A DNA stretch of 43,953 nt. Origin: a virus. The translations under genes were made by a program, and so were the position numbers. Position 1 is the first letter of the stretch, and every line of letters begins with the position of its first letter. The DNA lies in the UHGV virus genome UHGV-0199997; one strand, 5' to 3'. This document shows positions 418-17,369 of the stretch, piece by piece. A model generated the notes under the pieces. It was not told the origin of the DNA and did not search any database. It was given only the letters and a program-made list of their open reading frames with translations.

Positions 418-782
418 ACGCGCTGTACAGGTTCGCCACCTACGAGTTCGTTGATAAGCATAAAATCAGAGAGTTTGATTCTATAGCTGACGGACACGAA
501 CAGGCGCTTATCGCGATGGGTGTAATCGATAAGAAAAAACGTGCAGCGCGACGGGGTGGGCCGGAATGCCCGCCCCTTTTTATATCCACCTTTGAGACGT
601 ATTGCGACATTAAGTTTACGCGACACGTGCGCGAGGACGCTGTAGTATTGTTTGCAAGAGAATCCGTTACGTGGCAAGACCTGAAAGCCTATCTCGATGT
701 TACGCAAAAGCAGCTTAGCCTGTTCGAGATAGACATTATCATGGGCTTAGAAGCAATCTTTGAAGGTAGAAATCATGGCTGA
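399..782 (+). CDS. tail assembly chaperone T-extension (putative G-T fusion via -1 frameshift)
   Basis: -1 frame opens at 399 right after a TAA (396-398), is protein-like through 782 and overlaps the tape measure start; heptamer G GAA AAG at 408-414 resembles the lambda G/GT slip site G GGA AAG. Confidence 0.4.
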   Translation, partial: SITGKVDALYRFATYEFVDKHKIREFDSIADGHEQALIAMGVIDKKKRAARRGGPECPPLFISTFETYCDIKFTRHVREDAVVLFARESVTWQDLKAYLDVTQKQLSLFEIDIIMGLEAIFEGRNHG

Positions 783-3048
783 TACCGCTAGTTTGATAGT
801 ACGAGTATCATCGACCGGCGTCGATAAAACCACATCACAACTGAACGGGCTTACTAAGGCGGCGGGGGCCGCAGCAGCCGCCGTTGTCAGTCTGGAAACC
901 GCTAAGCAGGTGTTCAGCGCGCTGGTGGACTCTCAGCGCAACTTCGACAAGCTAAATTCCGGACTCATCACGATGACCGGGAGCGCGGAGAACGCGGCTA
1001 AGGCTTTCAGCGTCCTGCAACAATTCGCAAAAGAAACCCCATACGGGCTTAACCAGGCGGTGGAAGGCTTTACTAAACTTGTGGCCCTGGGCCTGAACCC
1101 CAGCAAAGAAGCGTTAATCTCCTATGGCAACACCGCCGCGGCTATGGGTAAAGACCTTAATCAAATGATTGAGGCTGTGGCGGACGCCAGTACCTTTGAG
1201 TTTGAGCGCCTAAAAGAGTTCGGCATCAAGTCCTCCCAACAGGCAGATACAGTGTCGTTCACGTTCCGCGGCGTAACGACTACTGTTAAAAAGAACTCCG
1301 AAGAGATTCAGAAATACCTTCTGAACATCGGCAACACGGATTTCGCCGGGGCGATGGAGACGCGCTCTAAGACGTTAGACGGCCAGTTATCGAGCCTCGC
1401 TGACTCTTTCGACGGCCTTGTTCTTGCGGTAGCGCAATCCGGTTTTGGCGACGCGGTAGGTGAACAAGCAGCAACAGCGGAAGATGCCATCACGGCGCTC
1501 ACCGACGCCATTGCGTCTAATGAGATAGCAGCCACGCTGCAGGATTGGGTGACACTGTTCAATGAGTCGTTCAAGTTTATCTCCGACGCCTTGAACGACC
1601 TGGCATTTGACACCGAGGACAAATCCGCGGATATGTCCGACTCGCTGGGTACCATACCTGACGCTATCCGTGAGTGGTTGCCCGACATCCAGCAGACATT
1701 CCACGAGGTTATCGCGTGGTTCCAGCGCATTGACGATTATGCCGTAGCGCTAGGGCAGACCCTTGCCGACGTGTTTGACCCGAGCAAAACGGCAGCGCTC
1801 ACATTTAAAAACCTGACTGCAGAAGCCGACGCCGCATACGCCGCCAGCATAAAACGCGCAGAGGCAGAATCACAGGCCATTACCAACAGGTCTAAGCAGC
1901 GTAAGAAAGAAATTGAGGAGCAACGCAAGCAGTATAATGAGCGCAAGAAGCAAGAGATTGACTTAGCCAGCCTTGTTAATAACAAGGGTGGAACTGGTGG
2001 GGCGGGAAACACCAACGACAAAGACGCGAAAGCTGCCGCTAAGAAAGCGGAGCAATTACGTAAACAGGCGCAGGATTACCTCGACACTTTGGCTCGTCAG
2101 AACAACGACGAGTTAAAGGCTATTGACGCTCAGGAACAGCAGAAACTGGCTAAGGCAAAAGAGTTCTACGGCCAGGGCGCGTTGTCTCTGAAAGAATACG
2201 AACAAGCTAAAACGGCTATCGTCCTTGAAGCAGGGCAAAAACGGCAAGATGAACTGGATAAACGCCAGAAAGAAGCCCAGGAAAAGCAGCAGAAAGGCGA
2301 CGACTTCATGGCCCAGATTATGGGCCAGAACGCCACTGAGCTTGAGCTTCTCGATATCCAGGAACAGCAGAAACTGGCTGTCGCCGATAAATACCGCGAA
2401 CAGGGGCTGATTAAAGAGGAACAGTATCAGGCGGCACTTAACGCTATCAATGAGCAGTATGCTACGAAGCGCGCCGACGCAACGGCAACCGCCTTTGGTA
2501 ACATGGCCTCAAATATCGGGTCTGCGTTGGGCGAGGCCTCTGGTGCGTATAAGGCATTCGCTATCGTACAGGCCACTATCGCCACGTACACCGCAGCTAT
2601 TGAGGCGTACAAGTCAACGGCTGCTATCCCTGTAGTTGGCCCGTTCCTGGCCCCTGTAGCCGCTGCCGCTGCCGTTGGGGCAGGTATGGCGCAGATTTCA
2701 GCTATCAGATCCGCACGTGAACAGGGTGGTCAGTTGTCCGCGGGGCAGGCTTCCACCATCACGGAACGCGATAAACCTGAGGTTATCATGCCGGCGGGTG
2801 CATCGCGTGTGCGCACCGCGCAGCAGATGAAAGAAATTATGGGGCAAAACGGGTCTTCTTCCGGCCCGTCTAATGTTACTATCGTAAACAACACGAGTTC
2901 TCAAATCGGCAAAGTATCCACCGAACAAGATGATGAAGGCCGTTTGCGAATCATCATTGAAGAACAGGTTGCCGCGTCTTTGCAGAACAGCAACAGTAAG
3001 ATTAGCAAGGCCCGCAAGGCCACAAGAAATGCGCCGGGGTTCAAATAA
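775..3048 (+). CDS. tail tape measure protein
   Basis: Roughly 760-aa helical protein rich in A/Q/K/E repeats with a hydrophobic Gly/Ala segment near the C-terminus, in the expected position after the chaperone; ATG 775 follows RBS GAAGG (762-766). The ORF track opens at TTG 760. Confidence 0.85.
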   Translation: MADTASLIVRVSSTGVDKTTSQLNGLTKAAGAAAAAVVSLETAKQVFSALVDSQRNFDKLNSGLITMTGSAENAAKAFSVLQQFAKETPYGLNQAVEGFTKLVALGLNPSKEALISYGNTAAAMGKDLNQMIEAVADASTFEFERLKEFGIKSSQQADTVSFTFRGVTTTVKKNSEEIQKYLLNIGNTDFAGAMETRSKTLDGQLSSLADSFDGLVLAVAQSGFGDAVGEQAATAEDAITALTDAIASNEIAATLQDWVTLFNESFKFISDALNDLAFDTEDKSADMSDSLGTIPDAIREWLPDIQQTFHEVIAWFQRIDDYAVALGQTLADVFDPSKTAALTFKNLTAEADAAYAASIKRAEAESQAITNRSKQRKKEIEEQRKQYNERKKQEIDLASLVNNKGGTGGAGNTNDKDAKAAAKKAEQLRKQAQDYLDTLARQNNDELKAIDAQEQQKLAKAKEFYGQGALSLKEYEQAKTAIVLEAGQKRQDELDKRQKEAQEKQQKGDDFMAQIMGQNATELELLDIQEQQKLAVADKYREQGLIKEEQYQAALNAINEQYATKRADATATAFGNMASNIGSALGEASGAYKAFAIVQATIATYTAAIEAYKSTAAIPVVGPFLAPVAAAAAVGAGMAQISAIRSAREQGGQLSAGQASTITERDKPEVIMPAGASRVRTAQQMKEIMGQNGSSSGPSNVTIVNNTSSQIGKVSTEQDDEGRLRIIIEEQVAASLQNSNSKISKARKATRNAPGFK

Positions 3049-3548
3049 TGACTGACTTATATTTCCCACGTAGCCTTAAGCCTATCGTATCAAAAGGCTA
3101 CTCGATGACCAGACGCAACAACGTCTGGAGTGTCGATTTAGCCTGCGTCGGGGTGCGTCAGGGCCGTGACACGTACTACGACGTGTTCCCGATAAGCGTA
3201 ACCCTGATTACCTCAGCGCTGGGGCGGCAGGCGTTTCTATCGTTTCTCGAAAAAGTAGACGGCGGTGCGTCAAGTTTCTGGATGGCGCATGACTTCGGCA
3301 TGGGTATCGAGGATTATCAAGTCACCATCACGTCCACCATCGCGGAGTCCACAGAAGACGGCATTAACTGGACGATTACTTTCACGGCAACCGCTGAGAA
3401 ATCGCCGTTCCAGGATGAGGATAACCAGTGCCTTGTTAACAATCTGCCGGATTTGTACGGTTGCTATGGTGATGTGCTGGGATGTCTCATTAAAACCTAC
3501 GGCGCCGCACAATCAACGTTTCCACGAATTTGGGATCCGATGCAATGA
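3048..3548 (+). CDS. minor tail protein (gpM-like, distal tail)
   Basis: 166-aa ORF immediately after the tape measure gene, overlapping its stop; call is by synteny with lambda-type tail tip order. Confidence 0.5.
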   Translation: MTDLYFPRSLKPIVSKGYSMTRRNNVWSVDLACVGVRQGRDTYYDVFPISVTLITSALGRQAFLSFLEKVDGGASSFWMAHDFGMGIEDYQVTITSTIAESTEDGINWTITFTATAEKSPFQDEDNQCLVNNLPDLYGCYGDVLGCLIKTYGAAQSTFPRIWDPMQ

Positions 3549-4060
3549 GTCAGGAATCAGTAGAAGCCGCCTATCGCCGTAAGCTGGCTTCAAATCCCGA
3601 CGGCGAGATGGATTACATCACGTTGCAAATCAGCCACCCGTTGCTGTCAAAGACGTATTATCTTGTGCGCGGGCTGCAGGAACTTACGGCAACACTGGAG
3701 ACGGGCGAAACAATCACGTTCGAGCCGACCCCGATGGAAGCGTCGGGGGCCGCTAACAACAGCGATATGGACCAGACGACCACGTTTACTTTACCGGATA
3801 TCCTCAATCAACTGGATGATGAGATGGATAAAATCCCGATGAGTAATACTGAGTTGCCAAAGTTCGTATTCCGCCGTTACGTCAGCACCGACCTGTCTTA
3901 CCCGGCTGACGGCCCCGTCGTGTATGAGTTGCAGGCCATCAACCAGGAGAAAGGTGAGTTCTCTGCAGATGTTGGTACACCTATGCTGAACCAACGAAGC
4001 ACTGGTATACTGATGACACCTAAAGAGATACCGTTATTACGCGGCCTGTTGACCACATGA
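3545..4060 (+). CDS. minor tail protein L-like
   Basis: ATGA stop-start overlap with the upstream gene; N-terminal region resembles lambda gpL; synteny M-L-K. Confidence 0.55.
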   Translation: MSQESVEAAYRRKLASNPDGEMDYITLQISHPLLSKTYYLVRGLQELTATLETGETITFEPTPMEASGAANNSDMDQTTTFTLPDILNQLDDEMDKIPMSNTELPKFVFRRYVSTDLSYPADGPVVYELQAINQEKGEFSADVGTPMLNQRSTGILMTPKEIPLLRGLLTT

Positions 4061-4422
4061 ATATTAACGACTACACGGGCATACCTTACGACTTTCGCAA
4101 ACGCAATTGCTGGCATCACGTGCGCATTGTCCGCGCGGACGCCGGGTTAGACACCCCGGCGTTCGACGTCACAAGCCCTACGGCAATTAACGAAGCGTTT
4201 GACGAAGGTCATCGCAACACAAAGGGGCTTACGAAGATTGATAAGCCTGAAAACTTCTGTGCGGTGCTTATGGGGTATCGCCGTGGTGGTCGTATCGTGT
4301 GGCACGCAGGAGTTTACTTCGACGGGATGGTGAGTCATTGCGAGCTTGCATCCCGTCAGGTACGGCTTGACAGGCTGGCGGATCTCAGAGACACGTACAC
4401 GGAGATTGAATTTTGGCGATAA
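4057..4422 (+). CDS. tail assembly protein K-like, NlpC/P60-type peptidase domain
   Basis: ATGA overlap start; Cys in NCWHH and His in WHAGVYFDGMVSHCE are consistent with an NlpC/P60 catalytic pair as in the lambda gpK C-terminal domain. Confidence 0.55.
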   Translation: MNINDYTGIPYDFRKRNCWHHVRIVRADAGLDTPAFDVTSPTAINEAFDEGHRNTKGLTKIDKPENFCAVLMGYRRGGRIVWHAGVYFDGMVSHCELASRQVRLDRLADLRDTYTEIEFWR

Positions 4423-6968
4423 TCCTGCACTACACGCGAAACGCCGACGGCGCTTTCGACCGTACAAAACACGTCGGGATGCCGATGGAGTTTGTCGTTA
4501 ACCGTATTCCCGACGGCGTGCCTGCGCGAGTCTACCTCGGTGAGATTGGTGATGATACCGACGTAACCGACGACTTCGATGCGCTTAAAGACGAAGACGC
4601 GGTATACCACATTATTGAGGGTGCGGGTAGCGGGGCGCTTGGTGCCGTTAGTAAGGTGTTCGGTTTTATCCTTAAGCCAATCGCCAAGTTGTTCGGCCTG
4701 AACATGTCCGCTAACGCCAACTACACGGCGACTAACAATCAGACAACGTCACCGAACAACAGCCTTACCGACCGCTCAAACAAACCACGCCCTTACGAGC
4801 GCTCTTATGACATCTGCGGTACTGTGCAGACAATCCCTAACGACCTTATGCAGACGTATAAGGCGTTCAACTCAACTGGTGCTTTGCTGGAGTATTCGTA
4901 CTATGACGCGGGACGCGGGCATCTGCATATTGAGGCGGATGGCGTCACAGAAGGCGACACCCTTATAAGCGACATCACGGGTTCTTCTGTTGCCGTGTAC
5001 GCGCCGTATACTTCCCCGAACAACACCGCATCTCCCCAACTACAAATCGGCGACGTCATTGACCAGAAACTCTATGTGACATACTCCAACGACGACGTTG
5101 ACGGTATTGTACTGAAAGCACCAAACGACATCGGAGCTAACCCAAGCGCCGACGGCACCGCTAAACGTATTTCAAACACCGGCTACATTTATGACCCGTC
5201 AGGCGACTCTGCTTTTTCTGAGTTTCTTAGCGTCGGTGATGTCGCGGTGCTGAGCAACTTTGACGTTGCTGATGTCACTAACCTGAACGGCTCGTTTGAG
5301 GTTTTATACGTTGACGACTTCGAAGTAAGATTAGCCGTAAACGGTGCGTCTAACTGGACGGCGTTGACCAGCGGACAGACGTACACCCTAACAGAGCGTT
5401 CAGATACGTTTATTGGCCCGAGCAACACCTATGACGTATCCCTGACAGACTGGTATTACATGGTGCGCGGAGAGGTTGACCGTGTGCTCGCTAACGTAGC
5501 CGGGCAGAACGGCCTATACAAATACGACGGCGGCTATAACCGCACCAGCGTAACCGTAGAACTCCAGTACCAGATGATTGACTCTCAGCGCAACCCGTTG
5601 AGTGATATTTACACGGTACAGGCTACAATTACAGGCAACAATACGGATTACGTCGGTACGTCTATCTACGGACAGTTGCCGACAGCATCTCGTTTCCGCG
5701 CCCGTATGCGCCGTGTAACTAATTTTGACAAGGGCTACGACGGAACGGTAAGTGACGAGATAACCTTCATCAACCTGTACGGGCAGTCGCTGGACACAAC
5801 CCCACACTACGGCAACCGAACTACCGTGCATTGCGCACGTAAACAGACGCCGCGCGCCGCCAGTATCGACAACCCGGAACTACGCATGATTGCTACCGAG
5901 ATGTGCTACAAATACCTCGGCAATGGGGTGTTCGATACGGTAATGACTCCGAACACTCAGGCAGTGCAGTCGCTAATCCGACTGGCCCGAGACCCAGCGG
6001 TTGGTAATCTGAAACTGACAACGGTAAACATGGATAAGTTGCTTGCTGTGCAGGAAGAAATTGAGTCGTATTTCGGAAGTGAATTAGCGGGGCAATTCTG
6101 CTACACGTTCGACGACTACGACACCACGATGCAGGACATTGTTCAGACCATAGCGGAAGCCGTTTTCTGTACCGCATACCGTAAAGGCGCGGATATTATG
6201 TTGCGGTTTGACCGTCCGGTTGCGGGGCCTGAAATGGTGTTCACCCACCGCAGCAAAACTACCGGTACGGAGAAATGGACCCGCACGTTCAACGATTCTA
6301 CGACCTACGATAGCCTGTCGTTCTCGTACATCGACCCGGATACGAATGTACAGGAAACGATTTATATCCCGGAAGAACTCGGTGCAAATACGGAGGAGTA
6401 CGAATCGAAGGGCGTGCGCAACTACCAACAGGCATATTGGCTGGCGTGGCGTCGCTATCAGCGCAACACGTTAAGTAAAGTTGTCGTAGAGTTCGAAGCT
6501 ACGGAAGAAGGCGCTCTCGCTACCCCAGGCGGCGTAATTAGTGTAGTTAAAGGTTCACGTATTGCACCACAGGACGGCTATATTGTTGCCGTTAATGGGC
6601 TTACACTTACGTTATCCCAGCCTGTTACGTTTACTCCTGGCGATGACCACTCCATCATTCTTAAGAAGCGCGATGGCTCGGTGCAGAGTATCTCCGTTAT
6701 CAAAGGAAGCCACGACCGCGAAGTGATTATGCTCTCTGCGCCGGAGGAGGCAATCTACACAGGGAATAGTGCGCTAAAAACTGAGTTTTCATTCGGCAAC
6801 GAAGCAAGGCATAATGCTCAGAAGATAGTTGTTTCTTCAATCGACCCGGGCGACGACCGCACGGTCAAGATTACGGGCTACAACTATGATGACGGATTCT
6901 ATAAATACGACGGCGTCGCGCCATACGGCAGCGGTTTCTCCGACGGATTCAGCAATGGTTTTAATTAA
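4413..6968 (+). CDS. tail tip protein (gpI-like N-terminus fused to gpJ-like host-specificity region)
   Basis: 851-aa ORF; N-terminal ~100 aa (AVYHIIEGAGSGALGAVSKVFGFIL) resembles lambda gpI, the rest is a large beta-rich tip protein. The track start is TTG 4413; ATG 4476 or 4482 are alternatives. Confidence 0.6.
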   Translation: MAIILHYTRNADGAFDRTKHVGMPMEFVVNRIPDGVPARVYLGEIGDDTDVTDDFDALKDEDAVYHIIEGAGSGALGAVSKVFGFILKPIAKLFGLNMSANANYTATNNQTTSPNNSLTDRSNKPRPYERSYDICGTVQTIPNDLMQTYKAFNSTGALLEYSYYDAGRGHLHIEADGVTEGDTLISDITGSSVAVYAPYTSPNNTASPQLQIGDVIDQKLYVTYSNDDVDGIVLKAPNDIGANPSADGTAKRISNTGYIYDPSGDSAFSEFLSVGDVAVLSNFDVADVTNLNGSFEVLYVDDFEVRLAVNGASNWTALTSGQTYTLTERSDTFIGPSNTYDVSLTDWYYMVRGEVDRVLANVAGQNGLYKYDGGYNRTSVTVELQYQMIDSQRNPLSDIYTVQATITGNNTDYVGTSIYGQLPTASRFRARMRRVTNFDKGYDGTVSDEITFINLYGQSLDTTPHYGNRTTVHCARKQTPRAASIDNPELRMIATEMCYKYLGNGVFDTVMTPNTQAVQSLIRLARDPAVGNLKLTTVNMDKLLAVQEEIESYFGSELAGQFCYTFDDYDTTMQDIVQTIAEAVFCTAYRKGADIMLRFDRPVAGPEMVFTHRSKTTGTEKWTRTFNDSTTYDSLSFSYIDPDTNVQETIYIPEELGANTEEYESKGVRNYQQAYWLAWRRYQRNTLSKVVVEFEATEEGALATPGGVISVVKGSRIAPQDGYIVAVNGLTLTLSQPVTFTPGDDHSIILKKRDGSVQSISVIKGSHDREVIMLSAPEEAIYTGNSALKTEFSFGNEARHNAQKIVVSSIDPGDDRTVKITGYNYDDGFYKYDGVAPYGSGFSDGFSNGFN

Positions 6969-6980
6969 AGAGGACTCTAT

Positions 6981-8975
6981 ATGTCAAGCGGATGCGGTGA
7001 CGTTTTAAGCCTGGCGGATTTACAAACCGCCAAGAAACACCAGATTTTTGAAGCTGAGGTTATCACCGGCAAGTCCGGCGGTGTCGCTGGCGGTGCTGAT
7101 ATTGATTATGCGACCAATGCGGTTACAGGGCAGACCCAAAAGACACTACCTGCCGTGTTACGTGACGTGGGCTTCCGCCCGGCGGCATTTACGTTCGCCA
7201 CTGGAGGTACGCTGGGTGTTAATGACGCAGATTTAGCGGTTTTATGGCCTATTTCCGATGGTGGCGATGGTAACTATTACGCGTGGAAAGGCGCGCTGCC
7301 GAAGGTTGTGCCTGCGGCGTCGACCCCTCTAACCACCGGCGGCGTTTCCGATGAGGCTTGGATGCCTGTGACAGAGGCCGCCTTACGTAGTGATTTAGCT
7401 TCCAGTAGTGGGGCTGGTATGATAGGGACTACCTCAGGCGCTACGGTGCAAGATACTATTAATCAAACAGGAACCCAGCAAAAGGATTTACATCCATTTG
7501 TACCAACAGGTTCTTTCGGTTCTGGTGCTTCTTTCACTTCTACACTTCAAGTATTCGAACATAATGGCGAATATTATTCATACAAAGGACCAATTTCACC
7601 AGGTTCTACAGTCCCGGCAACACCATCATCCGATGCAAACTGGAAAAAAGAACCCGTGTCTGACTATATTGAAAATTACGGCGGCGGCGTGCATGTTGCC
7701 GACCAAACACCCGCGATATTAAAAGCTATAGATGCTGGTGTACGACGCATTGTTCTACCCAAGGGTGAGCTTAGGATGTCACCTTGTACCATACCGGGAT
7801 ACACCCAAGGGCTAACTTTTGTAGGTCAAGGTGCTAACCAGGCGTACTCAGGTACTACAGTAATAAAACCGTTGAACGATGGTCAGAACTATATTTTTGG
7901 CTCTGGTGACACTAATGATGGGCAAGATAGTATTAAGTTTGAAAACATCCAGTTCGACGGTGAGTGGCGGTGCAACCACGCCATACTGCATACTCGTGGT
8001 GCCGGTTGGTACTACGAGAAGTTAACTGGCAAGAGATTCAATACGTGGTTTATCTACGACGGTCAAGGACTTGCCAGATTTAGAGATATTTATTGCGAAG
8101 CCACTGATGCATCAGATATCTCAATCCGTGCAACGGGGGGTGGCATACGGGTGTATAGCGACTCTGTCCTGGACACTGTGGAAGTGTACGGAGGAAGCTG
8201 CCCATTAAGGTTATCAGCCGGTGGCAATCGAGCTAGCAATATCTTTTGTAATGGAGGGTATGATATCGGCGCTATAGCTTTAGAGCCACAAGATACTTCA
8301 ACAAATCATATAAACACGGCGTTAAGTAATATATATATAGGTGAGAGTACTAATACATCAGGTGTAGCTATCCCAATTTTAGCACTGTATGGAAACTCCG
8401 TAAGAAAAGTAGAATCTGTGCAAATATCTAACGCTCATTTTGTTCATGCATCAACCACATTGAATACTAACATGACAGTTATAAGGGCTGATAAAGTTAA
8501 TGGTTTTGTTATGTCTTCTTTTGATGCACTTGCCATGGGAGAATACAGCACATCTAGCCGACGTACATATAACTTCCTTAATGCAACTAATTCTACATCT
8601 ATGTTATTTTCTGCTGGCAGTATTAGAGGCGTAAATAATAATCCAATAGTATTGGGTGATGGATGCTCATTGAGCATAGATGCAGTTGAGTTTAATGGCT
8701 GGGGTACAAACTCTGATTCTGGCACTGAAAACAAAGCCGCTATCAGAACCACATCCTCCGATGCAAGGTGCGTGATAGGCTCATCATGTAACTTTACCGC
8801 AAGTCAAACAGACTCATACGCCGTTTGTGCTTATAATGAGTTTACGGTTAGCGCATCGATACTTAACATAAACTATAGTAGTTCTACAATATTCTACCCT
8901 GCTAACGTTAATTACAGTTACATATATAAACGTCCCGGTGGTAAGATAACTTTAGTTAACACTTTTAGTGCGTAG
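6981..8975 (+). CDS. tailspike / tail fiber (receptor-binding protein), mosaic
   Basis: 664-aa ORF with RBS AAGAGGA; GC-rich N-terminal anchor domain followed by an AT-rich, Ser/Thr/Asn/Gly-rich C-terminal part; last gene of the tail operon, followed by a strong terminator. Confidence 0.7.
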   Translation: MSSGCGDVLSLADLQTAKKHQIFEAEVITGKSGGVAGGADIDYATNAVTGQTQKTLPAVLRDVGFRPAAFTFATGGTLGVNDADLAVLWPISDGGDGNYYAWKGALPKVVPAASTPLTTGGVSDEAWMPVTEAALRSDLASSSGAGMIGTTSGATVQDTINQTGTQQKDLHPFVPTGSFGSGASFTSTLQVFEHNGEYYSYKGPISPGSTVPATPSSDANWKKEPVSDYIENYGGGVHVADQTPAILKAIDAGVRRIVLPKGELRMSPCTIPGYTQGLTFVGQGANQAYSGTTVIKPLNDGQNYIFGSGDTNDGQDSIKFENIQFDGEWRCNHAILHTRGAGWYYEKLTGKRFNTWFIYDGQGLARFRDIYCEATDASDISIRATGGGIRVYSDSVLDTVEVYGGSCPLRLSAGGNRASNIFCNGGYDIGAIALEPQDTSTNHINTALSNIYIGESTNTSGVAIPILALYGNSVRKVESVQISNAHFVHASTTLNTNMTVIRADKVNGFVMSSFDALAMGEYSTSSRRTYNFLNATNSTSMLFSAGSIRGVNNNPIVLGDGCSLSIDAVEFNGWGTNSDSGTENKAAIRTTSSDARCVIGSSCNFTASQTDSYAVCAYNEFTVSASILNINYSSSTIFYPANVNYSYIYKRPGGKITLVNTFSA

Positions 8976-8979: not shown

Positions 8980-9005
8980 AAGGCCCCGAAAGGGGCCTTT
9001 TCTCT
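8980..9005. terminator. bidirectional rho-independent terminator
   Basis: AGGCCCC-GAAA-GGGGCCT stem-loop followed by TTTCTCT; sits between the convergent tailspike gene and the minus-strand replication operon. Confidence 0.7.
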
Positions 9006-9141
9006 ACTCTTCTGATACCTTCTCCAGTACAAACGCCAGTTGCGCATTAGCGGCATCTCTTTGCTGCCGTAGTCGTAGAACCTCTTCTTCAAGTTCCTTG
9101 ATACGTTTTTGTAATGCCGGAATCGGGGCTATGATGTTCAT
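9004..9141 (-). CDS. small coiled-coil protein (45 aa), not in the ORF track
   Basis: MNIIAPIPALQKRIKELEEEVLRLRQQRDAANAQLAFVLEKVSEE; its ATG overlaps the TGA of the upstream primase-like gene (ATGA), suggesting translational coupling. Confidence 0.35.
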   Translation of the reverse strand: MNIIAPIPALQKRIKELEEEVLRLRQQRDAANAQLAFVLEKVSEE

Positions 9142-9653
9142 CTGGTAAATTTCCTCGCAAGATACGTTATTTCTTCTTCACAAAGTTCATCAAGGTCATT
9201 TGACACAAATCCTCTGGTGAATGTTTTGCTGAACTTTAAGCCCGCTTTATCATTGTCACCGGCGCACACCCATTCATACGGCAAAAGTGACATTTGCTGC
9301 CGTAAGTCCGCTGGTATGTTCGACCCCAATGCGCTAACTGCATTAAACCCGCAATTCATCAAAGCAACAGCTTTAAATATGCTTTCGGTAACAAATACCA
9401 CCCCGCTACTCGGCAAATACTCAAGTCCCCATAAACACGGCCTTGTTGTTCGGGTATAGTACCGCGCGTCTTTATGGTTCTTGCAGTTCTTTTCGGCGTG
9501 TGGTTTGTAGTGCTGGTACCCGCGAAGCCTACCGTCAAATCCCCACAGGTAAAACGTAGCTACTCCAGGGCCTAAGACTACACGTAAACGGTCCGCGTCA
9601 AAACCTCGTGACAGCAGATGTGCCTTAAGTAGTAACTCCTCGCTGCCCATCAT
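9138..9653 (-). CDS. TOPRIM-domain primase-like protein
   Basis: TOPRIM signature: conserved Glu in FVTESIF and DxD in CAGDNDKAG; ATGA overlap with the helicase stop. Confidence 0.6.
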   Translation of the reverse strand: MMGSEELLLKAHLLSRGFDADRLRVVLGPGVATFYLWGFDGRLRGYQHYKPHAEKNCKNHKDARYYTRTTRPCLWGLEYLPSSGVVFVTESIFKAVALMNCGFNAVSALGSNIPADLRQQMSLLPYEWVCAGDNDKAGLKFSKTFTRGFVSNDLDELCEEEITYLARKFTR

Positions 9654-11074
9654 TTCTTACCTCGTCTCTTCATGTAGTTAAGCAACTCTTCCTGCACCGA
9701 TTTCTTCTCATCAGTACGCGCGGCAACAACCTCGTCAAGAGTGTCTTTGGCAACGATATGATAGAGGAACACCGGGCGCTCGTGGCCTGCCTGTTTCTGG
9801 CGGACTGGGCCTATGCGCTCGACAACCTGCAAATAGTGCTCAAGGTTCCACCCTGGCGAAATAAACGCCAGATGATGCCCGCCGTCCTGTAAATTGAGGC
9901 CGTGGCCCGCCGACGCAGGATGCACGCATAAGATTTCGATTTCGCCGCGGTTCCACGCTTCCATCTGCTTATTACCCTTAGCGCCTTTGGCGAACGCCTG
10001 CGCCTGCGGGAATCGTTTAAGGATGCGCTCCAGTTCATGCTTGAACTGATAGGCGACTAGCAACGGTGCACCCTGCAACTCTTCCACAATGGACTCCAGT
10101 GCGTCCAGTTTCGTGTCGTGCACTTTCTCCCAGTCTTTCGTTGCTTCGCCGTCCGGCCCTGACACATACACGGCACCGGATGCAATCTGAAGGCACTTAG
10201 ATGTCTTCGCCGCCGCGTTAGCCGCTTCAACTTCCCCGCTCTCCAGCTCCGCGAATAGCTTCTCCTCCATATCGATGTACGCCTGACGTGCTTTCTTCGG
10301 CAGGTCGATTTCAACCGGTACGATAATCGGCGCTTCACATCCGAACCACTCGGCGGCGTCAATCGTGAGACTAATGTCCTTCATCTTCTGGTGAATCTCG
10401 GTATCCGCCCCCGGGCGGGCATGGTACTCGCGTGCCATCGCCGACTTACCTTTCTGTACCGAGTTAAACCAGCGGTCTGTGAATGCCGTGTATGAAGACC
10501 CCAAGCGCTCTCCTGCGTCGATAAACCAGTTCTGGCCCCACAAGTCCTTGAGGCCGTTCGGTGATGGTGTGCCAGTCAGGTTGATAAAACGCTTAACCTT
10601 ACCGAAAGCAACCTTGCTAAGAGCCTTTGCGCGCTTGCTTCCACCTGAACGGCTGCGGAACGATTTAAGCTTCGTGCTTTCATCGGCAACGATAACCGTA
10701 AAAGGCCAGTCGTCTTTGCCGTAGTAGTCAATCAGCCACTCGATAACTTCGTAGTTTGTGCACACCACGTTAGCGTCTGACTCCAGTGCCGCGATGCGAC
10801 GCCTCTCGCTACCTGTTGCATCTACGACACTCAGGCATGGAAATCGCCATTTCTCTTGTTCTGCGGGCCATGTGCCGGATGCGACGCGCAACGGAGCGAG
10901 GATTAACACGCGGTCGTCGTCCGTAAGCTGCCCGTTGCGGAACAGTCTGTTTAACGTCCACAGTACGCTGCCAGTCTTCCCGGCACCCATGCTTGCCCAT
11001 ATGTTGCAGCGATGGTGCCGCAACATGAACGAGGTAATGAGCTTCTGGTACTCGCGCCTTTGAAACTTACTCAT
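9650..11074 (-). CDS. SNF2/DEAD-like superfamily II helicase
   Basis: Walker A in ASMGAGKTGS, DEAH-type box in IVADESTKLK, C-terminal helicase motifs. Confidence 0.85.
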   Translation of the reverse strand: MSKFQRREYQKLITSFMLRHHRCNIWASMGAGKTGSVLWTLNRLFRNGQLTDDDRVLILAPLRVASGTWPAEQEKWRFPCLSVVDATGSERRRIAALESDANVVCTNYEVIEWLIDYYGKDDWPFTVIVADESTKLKSFRSRSGGSKRAKALSKVAFGKVKRFINLTGTPSPNGLKDLWGQNWFIDAGERLGSSYTAFTDRWFNSVQKGKSAMAREYHARPGADTEIHQKMKDISLTIDAAEWFGCEAPIIVPVEIDLPKKARQAYIDMEEKLFAELESGEVEAANAAAKTSKCLQIASGAVYVSGPDGEATKDWEKVHDTKLDALESIVEELQGAPLLVAYQFKHELERILKRFPQAQAFAKGAKGNKQMEAWNRGEIEILCVHPASAGHGLNLQDGGHHLAFISPGWNLEHYLQVVERIGPVRQKQAGHERPVFLYHIVAKDTLDEVVAARTDEKKSVQEELLNYMKRRGKK

Positions 11075-11903
11075 TTACAGCCCCCATGAACGCCTTTATA
11101 AATTCAGCGGCTACTTGCGGGACGATGGCATTGCCGTAACCGCGCAATCGTCCCACTCTGGCGGGTATCCCATTAGCCAGCGGGAATGTGCCGGGTTCAA
11201 CTGGCCGGAACTTTCCATCCCTGCATCCGAGCCAGTCAGCATCCGACCAGAAGCTGCGATTCGGATTGCCCCCACGAGGTAGCATTGATTGTGCAGATTG
11301 TTCGGGTCTCTTTTTGTTTCCGCCTCGCTGTAGCTGCCGTGACGCGAATTCTGAACCGTCGGCGTCCCCCATGCCGCTTTCAGTCCCTGCTCTGTTGAGT
11401 AGTCCAGCCTGTCGAATGTTCTGTCCTTCCCGTCCTTGCGAATCACTGTCTCTCCGCTCCCTTTGTGATCGTTCGCTGTCGGTGTCGGCCAGTTGGTACG
11501 CACCAAAGAAGAGTCGTTCTCTTTTATGCGGAGCGCCGACGCTACAAGCTGGGAGTACGGCAAACCCGACGGCGTAGTCTTCTCCTTCCAGGTGAGTTTG
11601 TAAATCGCACATCCACGATTTTGCAATTGCTGGCGCAACCTGTTCCCCAAAGAGGACTGGAGGGTGGCACTCGCTGATGAGGTCGAGGAAGACTGGCGCG
11701 AGGTGTCTCGGGTCGAACTGTCCGAGTTGTTTTCCTGCCGCGCTAAACGGTTGGCAAGGCGGGCTTCCCGTCCAGAGAGGCGTATCTTCCGAAACTCCCG
11801 CAAGTCTGAGCGCGAGAGGCCAGCCGCCGATGCCAGCGAAAAAAATGACACTGGGTGAACCCGTCAAGGTCTTCTGGCTTAACTTCGGTAATGCTTCTTT
11901 CAT
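11067..11903 (-). CDS. DNA (cytosine-5)-methyltransferase, frame-disrupted
   Basis: This frame carries motif I (FFAGIGGW), motif IV (PPCQPFSAAGK), ENV-like (FGEQV), motif VIII (PHKRERLFF) and motif X (GYGNAIVPQV); the target-recognition region and motif IX lie in an overlapping frame (11111-11851) and the N-terminus in a third frame (11743-11991). Confidence 0.65.
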   Translation of the reverse strand: MKEALPKLSQKTLTGSPSVIFFAGIGGWPLALRLAGVSEDTPLWTGSPPCQPFSAAGKQLGQFDPRHLAPVFLDLISECHPPVLFGEQVAPAIAKSWMCDLQTHLEGEDYAVGFAVLPACSVGAPHKRERLFFGAYQLADTDSERSQRERRDSDSQGREGQNIRQAGLLNRAGTESGMGDADGSEFASRQLQRGGNKKRPEQSAQSMLPRGGNPNRSFWSDADWLGCRDGKFRPVEPGTFPLANGIPARVGRLRGYGNAIVPQVAAEFIKAFMGAVNE

Positions 11904-11991
11904 CTACAACTCCAAAAGGTATGTGACCCTGTTTTATTAATTCACGCAGCCACGCGGCTGCACCTTTATCCCATTCATTGTAATAGTTCAT
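11743..11991 (-). CDS. N-terminal segment of the methyltransferase in an alternate frame
   Basis: ATG 11991 overlaps the TGA of the upstream 63-aa gene (ATGA); reads ...KPEDLDGFTQCHFF and would continue into AGIGGW if the A7 run at 11839-11845 were one base shorter. Confidence 0.4.
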   Translation of the reverse strand: MNYYNEWDKGAAAWLRELIKQGHIPFGVVDERSITEVKPEDLDGFTQCHFFRWHRRLASRAQTCGSFGRYASLDGKPALPTV

Positions 11992-12179
11992 TTGGCCACC
12001 AGAACTAACTCTTTACGCCCGAACGCCGTAACGTTACCTGTTACGTCTTCGATAACCAGTTTGCCGTTCGACTCTACGAACACTGTATCAACGGCAACAG
12101 GACGACGGGTCTTAACGTTGAAAATCATGTCGCCCGGTACGATGTCACGTGCTGGTTTGCGGTCATATTCGTGTTTCAT
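11988..12179 (-). CDS. hypothetical protein (63 aa)
   Basis: ORF with RBS AAGGAATTGAG before the ATG; lies upstream of and is coupled to the methyltransferase N-terminal frame. Confidence 0.5.
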   Translation of the reverse strand: MKHEYDRKPARDIVPGDMIFNVKTRRPVAVDTVFVESNGKLVIEDVTGNVTAFGRKELVLVAK

Positions 12180-12209
12180 TTCTCAATTCCTTATATTGTT
12201 GGTGTAGGA

Positions 12210-12494
12210 CTAACTATAGTAGTTCGCTATTAGGTCGTCAACCTGTTTGAACGAACCAACGACAAAAACATTTGCACCACGTTTGCGCATCCGCTCGTGC
12301 TCTCGTAACTGGTGCGGGTCAGGCTTCGTGCTTTCGTCTTTCTTAACCTCGACGAACCAGATGATGCCGCCGGGGAGAATTACCAGCAGGTCAGGAGCGC
12401 CGGAGCGCCCCTCGTAGGAAAGTTTACGAACGAGGCCACCAATGGCCTCGAATCGCTCTTTTGCGTATTTCTGTATTTTTCCTTCCGGGGTCAC
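12210..12494 (-). CDS. VRR-NUC domain nuclease
   Basis: 94-aa protein with the PD-(D/E)xK-like pattern GAPDLLVIL...FVEVKK...Q typical of VRR-NUC. Confidence 0.65.
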   Translation of the reverse strand: MTPEGKIQKYAKERFEAIGGLVRKLSYEGRSGAPDLLVILPGGIIWFVEVKKDESTKPDPHQLREHERMRKRGANVFVVGSFKQVDDLIANYYS

Positions 12495-12685
12495 AGCAAA
12501 GGCTCCGCATCCGGGTTACGCAGGAAGTACGCTTGATAGATGTCGTGTTCTGAATAGTAAACGCCTTTGTGCGTACACCCGGCACAAACGTCACTAAAGA
12601 ACCCATCACCCATTACCATGATAAATTCCCATTCTGGCATATCCACCAACGCAGCTAGTTTCTTACTAAATGGTTTGTTGCTCAT
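12491..12685 (-). CDS. hypothetical protein
   Basis: ORF track 12491-12694 opens at GTG; the internal ATG at 12685 is preceded by RBS AGAGGGG. Confidence 0.45.
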   Translation of the reverse strand: MSNKPFSKKLAALVDMPEWEFIMVMGDGFFSDVCAGCTHKGVYYSEHDIYQAYFLRNPDAEPLL

Positions 12686-12767
12686 AATACGCACCCCTCT
12701 CGTTTTGTATGCTCAATACCACAGCGCGGACAGATTCGGCAGTCTTCTTCATAAAACCAGTAAATTT

Positions 12768-12899
12768 TCATTCCAGCACCCACAGATAAATTGCGATGAA
12801 CATGCCCAGTACGGCGACAATCATGCCGTATTGGCCCTCGTGACAGTAGACACCGGCGGCAAATCCCGCCAGTACCGCGATAATCAGTTTACTTAGCAT
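12768..12899 (-). CDS. small hydrophobic membrane peptide (43 aa), not in the ORF track
   Basis: MLSKLIIAVLAGFAAGVYCHEGQYGMIVAVLGMFIAIYLWVLE; the start overlaps the 3' end of the DNA polymerase gene. Confidence 0.3.
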   Translation of the reverse strand: MLSKLIIAVLAGFAAGVYCHEGQYGMIVAVLGMFIAIYLWVLE

Positions 12900-15072
12900 A
12901 GCGCTTCATCTCCGCACCTTCCGCCACAAGAGGGAACCCCTCTGCCCACTCCGGTAATTCGCACATCAACCGCTCAAGCTCTGCAACATTGTATTCCGGT
13001 AAATCTGGCGTCTCGCAGATAATCTCATCGTGAACATGAAGTACAATCGGGTAGCCGTTTGCCTCTACGTTCAGCAGCGCATTAGCCAGCAAATCACGGC
13101 ACAGCGCCTGCGTGCAGTTTTCCACCAGTTTACCGGAGTAGGTGTACTGAAAGCCCCACTGACGGGTTAGCTGATTTTCACCCTGATACTTGATGCGGAC
13201 GTTAGTAGACACTTTTCCATCTTCGTCTGTCTCTTTCGACACGCTTAACCCAACACCCGGATAAGACATAACACGACCCGACGGCAGCGTCATACGCAAC
13301 CACCAACCGGCGACTTTGTTGCCGTTGTTGTCTGTCTCCACGTTACGCGAAAACTTAACTCCCCGCGGCCCTGCGGTGAACTCTTTACCTGGATTGCGAA
13401 TAGCTGCCATAGCCGCATCTTCAATATCTCGCCAGAAAGCTACGGTTTCCGGGTGGGACTCACGCCACATGCGTTTGATAGCGTCACAGGTACGCCACAC
13501 TTTCTTATCAAGAATATATGATGGTCGGTCATCTTTTTCACCTGGCCGCGGAGGCCGCTTGGCTTCCTGAATACGCGCCCACTCATATCCACGCGCGGTA
13601 GCGGCCCAGATGTGGTCGGGGAAAGTACCGTCCATTGTTTTAGCCATATCAACAAGGTCAAGGCCGAGGTTCTTAGCAAACTGAACGAAAGCACCTACAC
13701 CGCCTGCGTAGCCGAGGCCCAATTCGCAGGCTTTACCAATCTGCCGTAAGTCTTTACGTTCTTTCTTAATGTAATCCGGCTCCATGCCAAACATCTTACC
13801 TGCGGTTACGCAGTAAATATCCAGCCCAGCACGGAACGTATCTAACGCGGTTTCTTCCCCCGCCAGCCACGCGAGACCGCGGCCTTCAACGTTAGAGTAA
13901 TCGGCAACGACAAACTTATGCCCGGCTTCCGGGATAATGCAGCTACGAACCGTCGATGCCGTCAGCTTGGCTACATCGAAACGGCGGTGCGCGCGGCCCT
14001 TAAGTAACGCTGAAATGCCTTTATCCAGTTCATCATCATCATGGTAATACCCGCGCGCCAGGTTCTGCGGCTGGAAGCCTTTACCCGCAAACCGTAACGT
14101 ACGCTTTGCCCCACCGTACTGGATGCAACCGCGGCGTCGGTCGTCAGAAGAGCGGCCTAACAGCAGCGGGTTATATTTCGTTGACGCCGTGGACGCGGCC
14201 CCGAGGCGCATTTCGATAATCGTGCGGGCGTCGTCCGGTAAATCATCATCCGCCAGCAGGTCATTCAGCGTCGACTTCTGCGCATTGTGGATGCGGTGCG
14301 CGGGTGCGAGTTCACGCAGAATCGGAAGGAAGTCTTTACCGGTAAGCGAGCCGCCGTATTTGCGCTGTGCTTCTTCCTGTAACTGCGCTTTATGTTTCTC
14401 CACGGCTTCAATCGCGGCTTCCGCCAGCGCGACGTCAACCTTAAACCCTCGGTCATTGATTAACTGGTCCAGTTCCAGTACGCGGTCCTCGAACTCAGAG
14501 TTACCCCACCGCGGTAGCTTATGGAAAACTTCACGCATCGCAGTGATGTCGCTCACGGCGTACTTGATGAATAGCGCCCACTCGTCCGGGTGTGTTTCGG
14601 CGGTGTAACGGCGGATTTTGTAGTTCTTCGGCGTAGGTTTAGAAAAACGCTGAATCAGTGCCTTGCCGCGTTTATCTTTCGCGTTGTCCGCGGATACGCC
14701 CAGCACTTCGCACAGCGCATCGAGAGAACCCGGCAGCGCGTGACGAAACGCCCAAATCATCGTATCAATGGTGTTGCTTACCGGAATATCAAAGCCCCAG
14801 CAGTGCTTCATGATGAGCCTATCGAAAAGTCCACCGTTGTGCCACACCATCTTAATTCGGCTGTTTGGCTTCACCAGACGGCGTAACACGCGGTGCAAAT
14901 CCCCCGGCATGTCGCTGCCGTCCGTGCAATCCCACACCTGCACAGGCTCGTCATCGAAAGCATAGGTACAGATTAACACTTCGGTTGACGGGTGTTCGGC
15001 GTAAGCGTAGGAACCGACTTTCTTTAAATCGGCTTCGGAGAATGTTTCAAAGTCTAAGAACAGGTAACTCAT
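12889..15072 (-). CDS. DNA polymerase, family A (Pol I / T7-like) with 3'-5' exonuclease domain
   Basis: 727 aa; Exo I motif in LFLDFETFS at the N-terminus and a Pol A-type polymerase domain. Confidence 0.9.
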   Translation of the reverse strand: MSYLFLDFETFSEADLKKVGSYAYAEHPSTEVLICTYAFDDEPVQVWDCTDGSDMPGDLHRVLRRLVKPNSRIKMVWHNGGLFDRLIMKHCWGFDIPVSNTIDTMIWAFRHALPGSLDALCEVLGVSADNAKDKRGKALIQRFSKPTPKNYKIRRYTAETHPDEWALFIKYAVSDITAMREVFHKLPRWGNSEFEDRVLELDQLINDRGFKVDVALAEAAIEAVEKHKAQLQEEAQRKYGGSLTGKDFLPILRELAPAHRIHNAQKSTLNDLLADDDLPDDARTIIEMRLGAASTASTKYNPLLLGRSSDDRRRGCIQYGGAKRTLRFAGKGFQPQNLARGYYHDDDELDKGISALLKGRAHRRFDVAKLTASTVRSCIIPEAGHKFVVADYSNVEGRGLAWLAGEETALDTFRAGLDIYCVTAGKMFGMEPDYIKKERKDLRQIGKACELGLGYAGGVGAFVQFAKNLGLDLVDMAKTMDGTFPDHIWAATARGYEWARIQEAKRPPRPGEKDDRPSYILDKKVWRTCDAIKRMWRESHPETVAFWRDIEDAAMAAIRNPGKEFTAGPRGVKFSRNVETDNNGNKVAGWWLRMTLPSGRVMSYPGVGLSVSKETDEDGKVSTNVRIKYQGENQLTRQWGFQYTYSGKLVENCTQALCRDLLANALLNVEANGYPIVLHVHDEIICETPDLPEYNVAELERLMCELPEWAEGFPLVAEGAEMKRYAK

Positions 15073-15086
15073 TATTTTCGACCCTT

Positions 15087-15112
15087 AGTAAAAAGGCCCA
15101 ATGAAGGGCCTT
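15087..15112 (-). terminator. rho-independent terminator or attenuator between the SSB-like and polymerase genes
   Basis: GGCCC-AATGAA-GGGCC hairpin followed on the minus strand by a U tract (plus-strand AAAA at 15091-15094). Confidence 0.45.
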
Positions 15113-15131
15113 AGTTAAATTGATTCAGATA

Positions 15132-15761
15132 TTAACGGCGACGACGTTCGCGACGTGGTGCGTCATCTTCTTCGTCGTCTTCAAGGTCGTCGGTGCTCGC
15201 TACTACACTGGAGCCTCCGAAGCGTTTACCTTCTCCCATATACTTGATACCAAGGATGGTAGCGCACAGGTTTTTCCAATCTTTGTGCCACCATAATTCT
15301 ACAGATACGTTTGCTACACAACCGCTATAAACCTGCTCCCCTTCTACTTCCTTCCCGTCGATGTTGAAATCAGGCTCGGTTTGTTTTTCACCTTTAGCCG
15401 ATGTCATAATCACCGGTTGGCGGTTGTTAGTAGCACGGAAGTACAGACCTTCTTCAAAATCCTCAATCGGATTGTCGCGCATTGCCAGGTCGCGGACGCA
15501 GCATTTGTCTGCGTGGTGGTCTGCACCGTAGTTGGCCTTCATCCATTTCTCAGCAGCAGCAGCCCCGATTGCCTCTGTTACAACTTCCATAGCGGTATCG
15601 TAAAGCGCATCAATTTGAGGATGGTCCGGCTGCATAAGAACAGTAACCTGATATTTACCCTTAATCAGTTTACCGGTTTTCTTGTCCTCAGAGTCGGCAG
15701 CACGTTCAAATACATTAACCCATGCAGTGTTTACTTTACGCAGATTCAGCTTAATACCCAT
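15132..15761 (-). CDS. putative ssDNA-binding protein (phage SSB-like)
   Basis: 209-aa protein with an acidic C-terminal tail (DDLEDDEEDD), located between the exonuclease and polymerase genes; the family assignment is tentative. Confidence 0.45.
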   Translation of the reverse strand: MGIKLNLRKVNTAWVNVFERAADSEDKKTGKLIKGKYQVTVLMQPDHPQIDALYDTAMEVVTEAIGAAAAEKWMKANYGADHHADKCCVRDLAMRDNPIEDFEEGLYFRATNNRQPVIMTSAKGEKQTEPDFNIDGKEVEGEQVYSGCVANVSVELWWHKDWKNLCATILGIKYMGEGKRFGGSSVVASTDDLEDDEEDDAPRRERRRR

Positions 15762-15852
15762 CTTGATTTCTCGCTTTTAAGTTTCGTTTACTCCGGGAAC
15801 TGCCCGGCCAGTGGTTAGAAATATAATAGCTAACTATTCAGGTGTCAACACT

Positions 15853-17100: not shown

Positions 17101-17369
17101 ACTCTGCTCTCCCACTGGTCAATTAAATGTCGCGTCTTATGGTCGCAGTGCATCGCCCACCCGTACATCGACTCGAAGACATAAAAGTCAGGTTTGGCGA
17201 AAGTCGTGCGTTTAATCTGCGACACATGACGGCCTATATCTTTATGCCGTGGTACTTTGCCTAAGTATGCCATCTCTTCCATCTGGTGCGCACCTGACGT
17301 CGCACGCAATAGCCACAACGCCTCGGTGTTATCCCGCCTGTCTACGGCGCGGTAGAGTTGGTAAATCAT
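17097..17369 (-). CDS. hypothetical protein (90 aa)
   Basis: ORF translationally coupled to the exonuclease gene. Confidence 0.45.
   Translation of the reverse strand: MIYQLYRAVDRRDNTEALWLLRATSGAHQMEEMAYLGKVPRHKDIGRHVSQIKRTTFAKPDFYVFESMYGWAMHCDHKTRHLIDQWESRV

Follow-up and report, generated by a model that had tools for sequence, protein, structure and literature searches.

The analysed window of 43,953 bp corresponds to a complete, tightly packed Kagunavirus-like (Guernseyvirinae) E. coli siphophage genome. Compared by megablast with 50,697 phage records, it showed 88-91% identity over 60-86% of the query to Kagunavirus phages, for example Golestan, fKuEco01, K1G, K1ind, EM1 and XY1, and the nucleotide identity below 95% to Kagunavirus type members suggests a distinct species. 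The modules are collinear with those of the annotated relatives fKuEco01, Golestan, EM1 and K1G, and the gene order is the same. Rightward tail genes (1-8975) are followed by a leftward replication block (9004-21218), by a rightward block containing the early, lysis, packaging and head genes (21687-41358) and by a short leftward block (41387-43801). The corrected gene map holds 77 genes at a coding density of about 94%. The ten relatives used for comparison are designated L001-L010.

A previous sequence-only reading had listed ten small ORFs, with ribosome-binding sites and/or overlapping stop-start signals, as missing from the ORF track. Each of the ten coordinate pairs delimits an exact open frame from ATG to stop codon, encoding 36-59 aa. 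A Shine-Dalgarno (SD) site was found at all ten, with a duplex to the 3' end of the 16S rRNA of -5.2 kcal/mol or stronger, a value to be compared with -4.4 kcal/mol, which only 13% of random 20-mers reach. The strand of each ORF is that of its upstream neighbour (10/10). We then used an independent gene caller that scores codon log-likelihood (with a model trained on 17 long ORFs) and SD strength and makes its choice by dynamic programming; all ORFs of at least 25 aa were candidates and the listed ORFs were not given as input. The caller, which prefers the longest allowed ORF and could thereby slightly inflate the calls of -4 overlaps, selected the ten listed ORFs. The list omits two real genes, at 12682-12771 and 34969-35115. 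The codon bias of nine of the ten ORFs lies inside the range of accepted genes of 60-150 aa (0.185 ± 0.075 per codon). Because a null made of wrong-frame decoys is biased by construction, a shuffled-sequence null was added, and the codon log-likelihood of nine ORFs exceeded the 98.5th percentile of shuffled-sequence ORFs, the exception being 22973-23143 (85th percentile).

Full-length PHROG matches, covering nearly the whole protein and profile with E values of 5e-15 to 5e-34, were obtained for seven ORFs (9004-9141, 12768-12899, 20630-20758, 22973-23143, 26970-27119, 27810-27980 and 37710-37889). PHROG gave no match for 18265-18375 or 27271-27441 and only a weak one for 23211-23351 (1.5e-3), no Pfam or NCBIfam profile passed the threshold with any of the ten ORFs, and a PDB sequence search with 37710-37889 and 22973-23143 returned no match. 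Conservation of the frames in related genomes, which had been put forward as a check, was observed for eight ORFs, intact at the syntenic place with a pooled pN/pS of 0.04-0.33; as far as aligned sequences can tell, these comparisons with the ten relatives show eight of the ten ORFs to be under purifying selection. In a codon-position test, in which variable alignment columns are tallied by codon position and each column is counted once, third positions made up 63-85% of the variation for 9004-9141, 12768-12899, 26970-27119, 27810-27980 and 37710-37889 (p from 1e-4 to 6e-11) and 65-78% for 20630-20758 and 27271-27441 (p = 0.008), while wrong-frame decoys showed their excess at codon position 1 or 2, not 3. 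Nine of the ten ORFs are thus supported as probable genes by comparative evidence, the tenth being 18265-18375. Our literature search turned up no expression studies, ribosome profiles or proteomes covering these ORFs or Kagunavirus-type phages.

In the leftward block, the last gene of the replication operon (9004-9141, minus strand) encodes a predicted coiled-coil peptide of 45 aa, and its ATG overlaps the stop codon of 9138-9653 (ATGA). It matches phrog_5915 at 2.7e-27, is found in 10/10 relatives with a pN/pS of 0.07, and exhibits variable columns of 5/1/20 by codon position (p = 7e-6). Its homologs fall into 171 protein clusters on 40-45-kb Kagunavirus/Jerseyvirus contigs, and it is already annotated as KE1_030, Golestan gp31 and EM1_gp56. 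The label "exonuclease subunit SbcD" carried by homologs was rejected, as no profile (PHROG, Pfam, NCBIfam) backs it. Directly downstream of the DNA polymerase gene, with an 11-nt overlap, lies a 43-aa hydrophobic gene (12768-12899, minus strand) with two predicted membrane segments (GRAVY 1.53, two hydrophobic peaks); it matches phrog_10404 at 9e-31 and is conserved in 10/10 relatives (pN/pS 0.11; variable columns 6/2/19). An ATGA links it to the 29-aa gene 12682-12771 (minus strand), one of the two absent from the earlier list, which has ATGA overlaps on both sides, matches phrog_38225 at 2.5e-22 (10/10 relatives, pN/pS 0.03, variable columns 7/1/17) and is annotated in relatives as KE1_037 and Golestan gp37. 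The stop codon of a 42-aa basic gene (20630-20758, minus strand) overlaps the primase-helicase start in the ATGA at 20630-20633. This gene, annotated as KE1_046 and Golestan gp51, matches phrog_23061 at 7e-34 and is intact in 4/10 relatives, with a pN/pS of 0.06 on few substitutions and variable columns of 2/0/7.

The rightward block contains two neighbouring small early genes on the plus strand. The 56-aa basic gene 22973-23143 is a cassette whose homology borders are its own start and stop codons; it matches phrog_9384 at 5e-15, has an SD of -8.8, and occurs in 3/10 relatives with a pN/pS of 0.33. Its codon bias is marginal and informative substitutions are few (variable columns 5/0/7, p = 0.07), and it is present in EM1 without annotation there. 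The 46-aa acidic gene 23211-23351, directly behind a promoter-like repeat (23145-23197) and overlapping the next gene by 11 nt, was found by tblastn in 31 phage records, has a weak phrog_35344 match and is annotated as KE1_055. Its homologs begin directly after the common SD GAGAGGAGAGAC, and here an in-frame 21-nt insertion adds seven N-terminal codons relative to them. Protein-guided codon alignment gave a dN/dS of 0.17-0.65 at high dS; it is a fast-evolving gene.

Further downstream on the plus strand, a 49-aa gene (26970-27119) has ATGA overlaps at its start (26970) and stop (27116), matches phrog_2180 at 2e-24 and is present in 10/10 relatives (pN/pS 0.22; variable columns 10/7/29). The 56-aa cassette gene 27271-27441, with ATGA at its 5' end and TAATG at its 3' end, separates two genes which an ATGA joins directly in relatives, the breakpoints of the insertion being at 27274 and 27424-27440. 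It was found in 8 phage records, among which those of Klebsiella, Pantoea, Hafnia and Salmonella phages show 47-55% aa identity; its pN/pS against L005 is 0.15 and its codon log-likelihood ratio is the highest of the ten. The stop codon of another 56-aa gene (27810-27980) overlaps the start of a NinH-family gene (ATGA at 27977), and this gene matches phrog_5407 at 2e-24 in addition to being conserved in 9/10 relatives (pN/pS 0.06; variable columns 6/2/29, p = 2.5e-8). The second gene absent from the earlier list, 34969-35115, encodes a 48-aa o-spanin (Rz1-like) and overlaps the i-spanin gene by 38 nt; it matches phrog_5672 (Rz-like spanin) at 8.5e-31 and is found in 10/10 relatives with a pN/pS of 0.08. 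In the head/neck module, between the Hoc-like decoration and head-tail adaptor genes, a 59-aa gene with a basic C-terminal tail (37710-37889) matches phrog_4451 at 5e-34, occurs in 8/10 relatives (pN/pS 0.04; variable columns 4/2/33, p = 6e-11) and is annotated as K1G ORF11, Golestan gp12 and EM1_gp36.

The remaining ORF, 18265-18375 (minus strand), encodes an acidic near-orphan peptide of 36 aa, and its ATG overlaps the primase-helicase stop codon (ATGA at 18372-18375). It exhibits a codon log-likelihood ratio of 0.33 per codon and an SD of -6.1. It sits on a 135-nt insert whose boundaries are the ATGA and a terminator hairpin (18213-18233), and between about 18240 and about 18372 the homology to every one of the ten relatives is interrupted. 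Neither tblastn against the 50,697 phage records nor a search of viral contigs with a degenerate back-translated pattern gave a match. An exhaustive HMMER search of 1.84 billion representatives led to a 45-aa protein, 94% identical over all 36 residues; the top match of that search, a 1267-aa repeat protein (P0001), was treated as a compositional/repeat artefact. The 45-aa homolog is encoded at the identical slot in two raw-read (Logan) assemblies, where it shares 4 nt with the end of a gene for a 755-aa primase-helicase, stop codon included. The two sequences differ by 4 synonymous and 3 non-synonymous changes and in their last ~27 nt, where a TGA ends the present ORF nine codons earlier. In seven relatives the slot is empty (5 nt) and the primase-helicase gene ends in ..GGAATAG. 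Three unrelated inserts occupy it in this genome, in Golestan/K1G (a 65-aa gene) and in L005 (a ~105-aa gene); all three start with ..GGAATGA and finish before the common terminator hairpin. The 65-aa cassette was found in 37 phage records and the ~105-aa cassette in 14. Among the relatives compared, the primase-helicase gene ends in TGA where an ORF follows in the slot and in TAG where none does.

We, then, examined the four-base overlaps, which had been described as pervasive on both strands. The twelve ATGA/TCAT tetranucleotides given as examples are all present at their positions. In the corrected map, 67 junctions are co-directional, of which 22 are at -4 (21 ATGA and 1 GTGA), 8 at -1 (TAATG/TGATG) and 41 overlapping in some way, so that start and stop codons overlap at 30/67 (~45%). 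Of the 46 junctions within ±20 nt, 18 lie at exactly -4, for which a uniform null gives P = 1e-17. More genes end in TGA (39/77) than in any other stop codon, and the TGA is preceded by A in 27/39 cases, compared with 19.8% expected from the third-position A frequency (p = 3e-11); this test and the annotations of the relatives are independent of the calling of downstream starts. Over the whole genome ATGA is only modestly enriched, with 349 occurrences versus 295 ± 15 in dinucleotide-preserving shuffles. The overlap motif is kept in 77/78 junctions aligned to relatives, the exception being the GTGA, a conservation that is partly expected because ATGA comprises a start and a stop codon. Starts at -4 have a mean SD of -6.0 kcal/mol and 78% of them a good one, like uncoupled starts.

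On the plus strand, the ATGA between two tail genes at 3545-3548 is kept in 7/7 aligned relatives and that at 4057-4060 in 10/10. The gene following the latter, 4057-4422, is the sole downstream partner at -4 without an SD, and the K1G record remarks on its homolog 'no RBS, translation may be coupled'. On the minus strand, ATGA joins the helicase stop to the start of a 171-aa primase-like gene (9650-9653), the stop of a 63-aa gene to the C5-methyltransferase start (11988-11991, kept in 5/5 relatives) and the stop of a 90-aa gene to a nuclease gene start (17097-17100, kept in 4/4). Two further plus-strand sites are 24009-24012, where the start at 24009 opens a 204-nt gene whose homologs in fKuEco01, Golestan and EM1 also measure 204 nt, and 28210-28213, where the NinH-family gene stop overlaps the start of a 60-aa gene (phrog_10956).

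The sites are therefore present as described, but at three of them, 11991, 24612 and 27271, the ATGA does not link intact genes, the partner gene being disrupted in this genome. The C5-methyltransferase gene starting at 11991 (minus strand) loses its frame about 100 nt further on, in a run of seven T (T7, 11839-11845) that is T6 in Golestan, and thus 11743-11991 codes for an N-terminal fragment only. The plus-strand gene 24612-24905, whose ATG forms the 24612 ATGA, encodes 97 aa in relatives and carries here an in-frame TGA at 24750-24752; it is a single 97-aa ORF in 9/10 relatives, with GGA, GGC or GGG (Gly) at the TGA position, and both halves retain the third-position signature. The DUF2737-family gene 27116-27274 (plus strand, 52 codons), whose TGA is the stop codon within the 27271 ATGA, has a TAA at codon 3 (27122-27124), where the aligned homologs in fKuEco01, Golestan and EM1 have GAA or GAG. 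A scan for in-frame stops based on all ORFs of the relatives was too noisy and was dropped.

These disruptions raise the question of whether mutation or sequencing error has split larger genes and left several of the small ORFs or junction partners as their pieces. This holds for 24612-24752 and 24771-24905 (GGA to TGA in the 97-aa gene), for 27200-27274, the C-terminal part of DUF2737 after the TAA, and for 11743-11991, the methyltransferase piece left by the T6-to-T7 frameshift, and 18265-18375 falls nine codons short of its homolog; the remaining nine ORFs of the list, however, have the lengths of their annotated homologs in relatives and are not fragments, and we regard fragmentation as a very improbable account of the small genes. 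Nearly as improbable, in our estimate, is a chance origin of some listed ORFs (18265-18375 and 22973-23143 above all), which would then be open stretches of spacer DNA that yield no functional protein. An open frame in relatives carries no weight here and was dropped as a criterion, because wrong-frame ORFs too remain open at 90% DNA identity. For 18265-18375, the lack of any match in the phage records or PHROG and a length below that of its sole homolog are set against a strong codon bias (z = 3.8), an SD, an exact ATGA start, insert ends that match the ORF and a slot that holds two other cassettes which are established genes. Similarly, 22973-23143 ranks no higher in codon log-likelihood than the 85th percentile of ORFs from shuffled sequence, and its pN/pS of 0.33 rests on 24 substitutions, but it has the PHROG match at 5e-15, no second-position changes at all and an SD of the strongest class. 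The ten sub-60-aa ORFs are, in our view, very probably genuine protein-coding genes, mostly catalogued, with ATGA overlaps that represent the usual phage packing.

The ATGA pattern had been taken as indicating tight translational coupling. At such junctions the upstream stop and the downstream start have bases in common (ATGA, TAATG/TGATG); a ribosome terminating at the TGA would re-initiate at the overlapping ATG, aided by an SD inside the upstream coding sequence, and the expression of the small gene would thereby be tied to that of its neighbour. Termination-reinitiation has been shown for E. coli gene pairs with -4/-1 overlaps and is mostly SD-dependent (Huber et al. 2019, PMC6728339), and overlaps of 1 and 4 nt dominate dsDNA virus genomes (PMC8903798). 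The junctions studied here share with the pairs of Huber et al. (E. coli, Haloferax; PMC6728339) the motifs, the -4/-1 geometry, the co-directional operon and, mostly, the SD within the upstream gene. There is no structural difference; the overlapping fraction of 30/67 is high and typical of dsDNA phages (PMC8903798). By analogy with these published experiments, the ATGA pattern most likely reflects translational coupling, and the SD-less 4057-4422 and the TAG/TGA switch in the post-primase slot are indirect hints of upstream dependence.

The overlaps could, as a less probable but still serious option, be a by-product of compaction and mutational ease, the genes being translated independently from their own SDs. 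In favour of independent initiation, 78% of the -4 starts have a normal SD that is at least as strong as those of uncoupled starts. Moreover, the overlapping E. coli pair bioBF initiated de novo (Huber et al., PMC6728339), and neutral models of start/stop replacement are reported to yield the -4 and -1 peaks (PMC3887535). On the other hand, most of the E. coli -4/-1 pairs tested were coupled (PMC6728339), 4057-4422 lacks any SD and yet is conserved in 10/10 relatives, and the post-primase stop goes from TAG to TGA exactly with the downstream ORF. For one site, the ATGA at 39378-39381, a programmed frameshift fusing two neck/tail-completion ORFs may be considered instead of a coupling site, as the records of K1G and fKuEco01 list for the homologous pair, besides the short ORF, a joined 'frameshift product'. 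Golestan and EM1, in contrast, annotate two separate genes with a 4-nt overlap, and the downstream ORF starts at an ATG of its own behind a 6-nt SD; we consider the frameshift unlikely. Translational coupling remains the reading that we prefer for these junctions.

The stop-start junctions also act as seams at which related phages exchange alternative small-gene cassettes. Comparison with relatives showed such an exchange for the post-primase slot and for 22973-23143, 23211-23351 and 27271-27441; these three are presence/absence or replacement cassettes with breakpoints at start and stop codons, and together with 18265-18375 they exhibit a presence/absence polymorphism whose borders fall between genes. 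Over the whole genome, a gene boundary is found within 5 nt of 34% of the homology breakpoints but of only 3% of random positions, and the excess at -4/-1 junctions specifically is marginal (p = 0.049). Lambdoid phages are mosaic at gene boundaries and carry 'moron'-type accessory cassettes. As in these phages, unrelated small genes share one slot here, with breakpoints at start and stop codons, and some cassettes may have their own promoter-like element, a repeat found before 23211 and before 31903-32088. No such repeat precedes 18265-18375 or 27271-27441, both of which are joined to the upstream stop codon, and a terminator-like hairpin follows 18265. In contrast to morons, the post-primase cassettes appear to lack a promoter of their own and are joined straight to the upstream stop codon, so that their expression would depend on the upstream gene. 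The boundary exchange is classical phage mosaicism and involves no new principle.

We consider two more far-reaching proposals doubtful: that the overlap, besides packing or coupling genes, would be a docking point at which Kagunaviruses gain and swap tiny accessory genes and, separately, that a 145-nt promoter-proximal repeat, for which Rfam gave no match, would be a new cis-acting RNA. The post-primase slot accepts no fewer than three cassettes unrelated to one another (36/45 aa, 65 aa and ~105 aa), all on ..GGAATGA. If docking were true, each cassette would inherit its SD from the helicase C-terminus and need no promoter of its own, and the 36-aa acidic peptide would be an uncatalogued accessory protein, possibly a host-takeover or anti-defence factor.

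Concerning the annotation status, the ORFs are indeed absent from the track, but only because of its 60-aa cutoff, and most are annotated in the more recent records of relatives, so that "missing" applies to the track alone. Same-sized CDSs exist for most of them in fKuEco01 (72 CDS), Golestan (78) and EM1 (76), while the K1G record (2010, 52 CDS) omits most of these small genes. They resemble the annotated small hypothetical genes of Kagunavirus/Jerseyvirus in length, syntenic position and, for most, 84-100% aa identity, with counterparts such as fKuEco01 KE1_030, 038, 046, 055, 063 and 068 and Golestan gp12, 31, 38, 51 and 75. They depart from catalogued families in that 18265-18375 and 27271-27441 are outside PHROGs and 23211-23351 has the 7-codon N-terminal extension. 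As in the lambda nin region, genes of 45-90 aa follow one another upstream of the terminase genes, with overlaps of 1, 4 and 8 nt; the cluster here includes a NinH-family gene (27977-28213) and the DUF2737 homolog (families NinH, DUF2737 and DUF551), whereas its gene content is largely unrelated to that of lambda.

Most of the ten probably belong to the early and replication modules as small accessory proteins, with one membrane protein beside the polymerase gene and one head/neck protein. Host-takeover and anti-defence factors often come from the small early proteins of phages, and the verified list is thus a useful starting point. The small genes and their ATGA architecture are ordinary, largely already annotated and unsurprising to a phage biologist; the main value lies in annotation quality, the 60-aa ORF cutoff hiding 13 of the 77 genes (17%) here. 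Mildly new are the near-orphan 36-aa cassette 18265-18375 and a few side observations. Two weak picks of the gene caller, 21263-21370 and 26514-26603, were dropped, having neither a conserved frame nor a PHROG match, and 34415-34525, a protein according to the fKuEco01 record, was discarded too, as it has no coding signature in the codon-position test. The interval 21263-21370 falls within the 145-nt repeat, and KE1_005 is a conserved non-coding element annotated as a protein.

An element of about 145 nt occurs in the window as two direct copies, at 21326-21470 and 34367-34509, which are 87-89% identical. A sigma-70-like promoter (TTGACT-N17-TAAGCT) is found at the start of both. The early copy precedes the rightward early operon and is shared by three of the ten relatives compared; the late copy precedes the spanin/late genes and occurs in every one of the ten. 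The consensus fold of the element presents an invariant first hairpin and a long stem with five compensatory pairs, and an Rfam search with the element returned no match. In phage fKuEco01, the element overlaps KE1_005, annotated as 'hypothetical protein'; a coding signature was looked for in this region and none was seen. The 145-nt element may be a promoter-proximal cis-acting RNA.

A second, shorter promoter-like element of about 45 nt (TTGCAC-N17-TACTAT) is present in five copies in the window, each directly 5' of a gene start. Two of them are on the plus strand (21618-21670 and 23145-23197) and three on the minus strand (32110-32148, 34255-34303 and 43803-43848). The genes behind them include the 46-aa early gene 23211-23351, the RusA-like gene 33722-34243 and the superinfection-immunity gene 43595-43801. 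The portal and head-morphogenesis genes are separated by a gap (31877-32188) of about 310 nt, compared with about 70 nt in fKuEco01; it contains a promoter-like repeat and a leftward 61-aa ORF with a GTG start (31903-32088). As this ORF has no PHROG match and no DNA homolog among the ten relatives, it is a possible moron.

Gene content varies in the slot directly 3' of the primase-helicase stop codon (18240-18374 in the window), which was compared with the homologous slots of L002, L004, L005, L011 and L012, i.e. three of the relatives and two further sequences. At least three unrelated cassettes occupy this slot, or it is empty. Where there is no cassette, the primase-helicase gene ends in TAG; where one is present, the gene ends in TGA, which lies inside the ATGA overlap.

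Two genes of the window are disrupted by stop codons. The conserved gene 24612-24905 is broken by an in-frame TGA at 24750-24752, while its homologs in nine relatives form one ORF of 97 aa with a glycine codon (GGA, GGC or GGG) at this position, the TGA differing from the glycine codon by one G-to-T change. In the DUF2737-family gene 27116-27274, codon 3 is TAA (27122-27124) instead of GAA or GAG as in relatives, and the remaining open part is only a 24-aa C-terminal ORF (27200-27274).

A T homopolymer at 11839-11845, with 7 T in gene sense compared to 6 in phage Golestan, throws the C5 cytosine methyltransferase gene (11991-11067) out of frame and results in the apparent ORFs 11743-11991 and 11067-11903. 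This run could reflect a sequencing error, pseudogenisation or slippage. A 246-aa ORF (11111-11851, minus strand) lies in a second frame wholly within the gene, and in phages K1G and fKuEco01 both members of the homologous pair are annotated as methyltransferase genes, overlapping one another (ORF30/31; 'Mte8-like').

The neck/tail-completion genes 39022-39381 and 39378-39776 overlap by ATGA, and their homologs in K1G and fKuEco01 are annotated additionally as a joined frameshift product. The pair 1-417/516-782 is the usual tail-assembly-chaperone frameshift pair.

RefSeq/UniRef homologs of the gene 9004-9141 (Golestan gp31, EM1_gp56 and Jerseyvirus entries) carry the product name 'exonuclease subunit (SbcD)'. 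No match in PHROG, Pfam or NCBIfam supports this name for the 45-aa predicted coiled-coil peptide, and it looks like a propagated annotation error.
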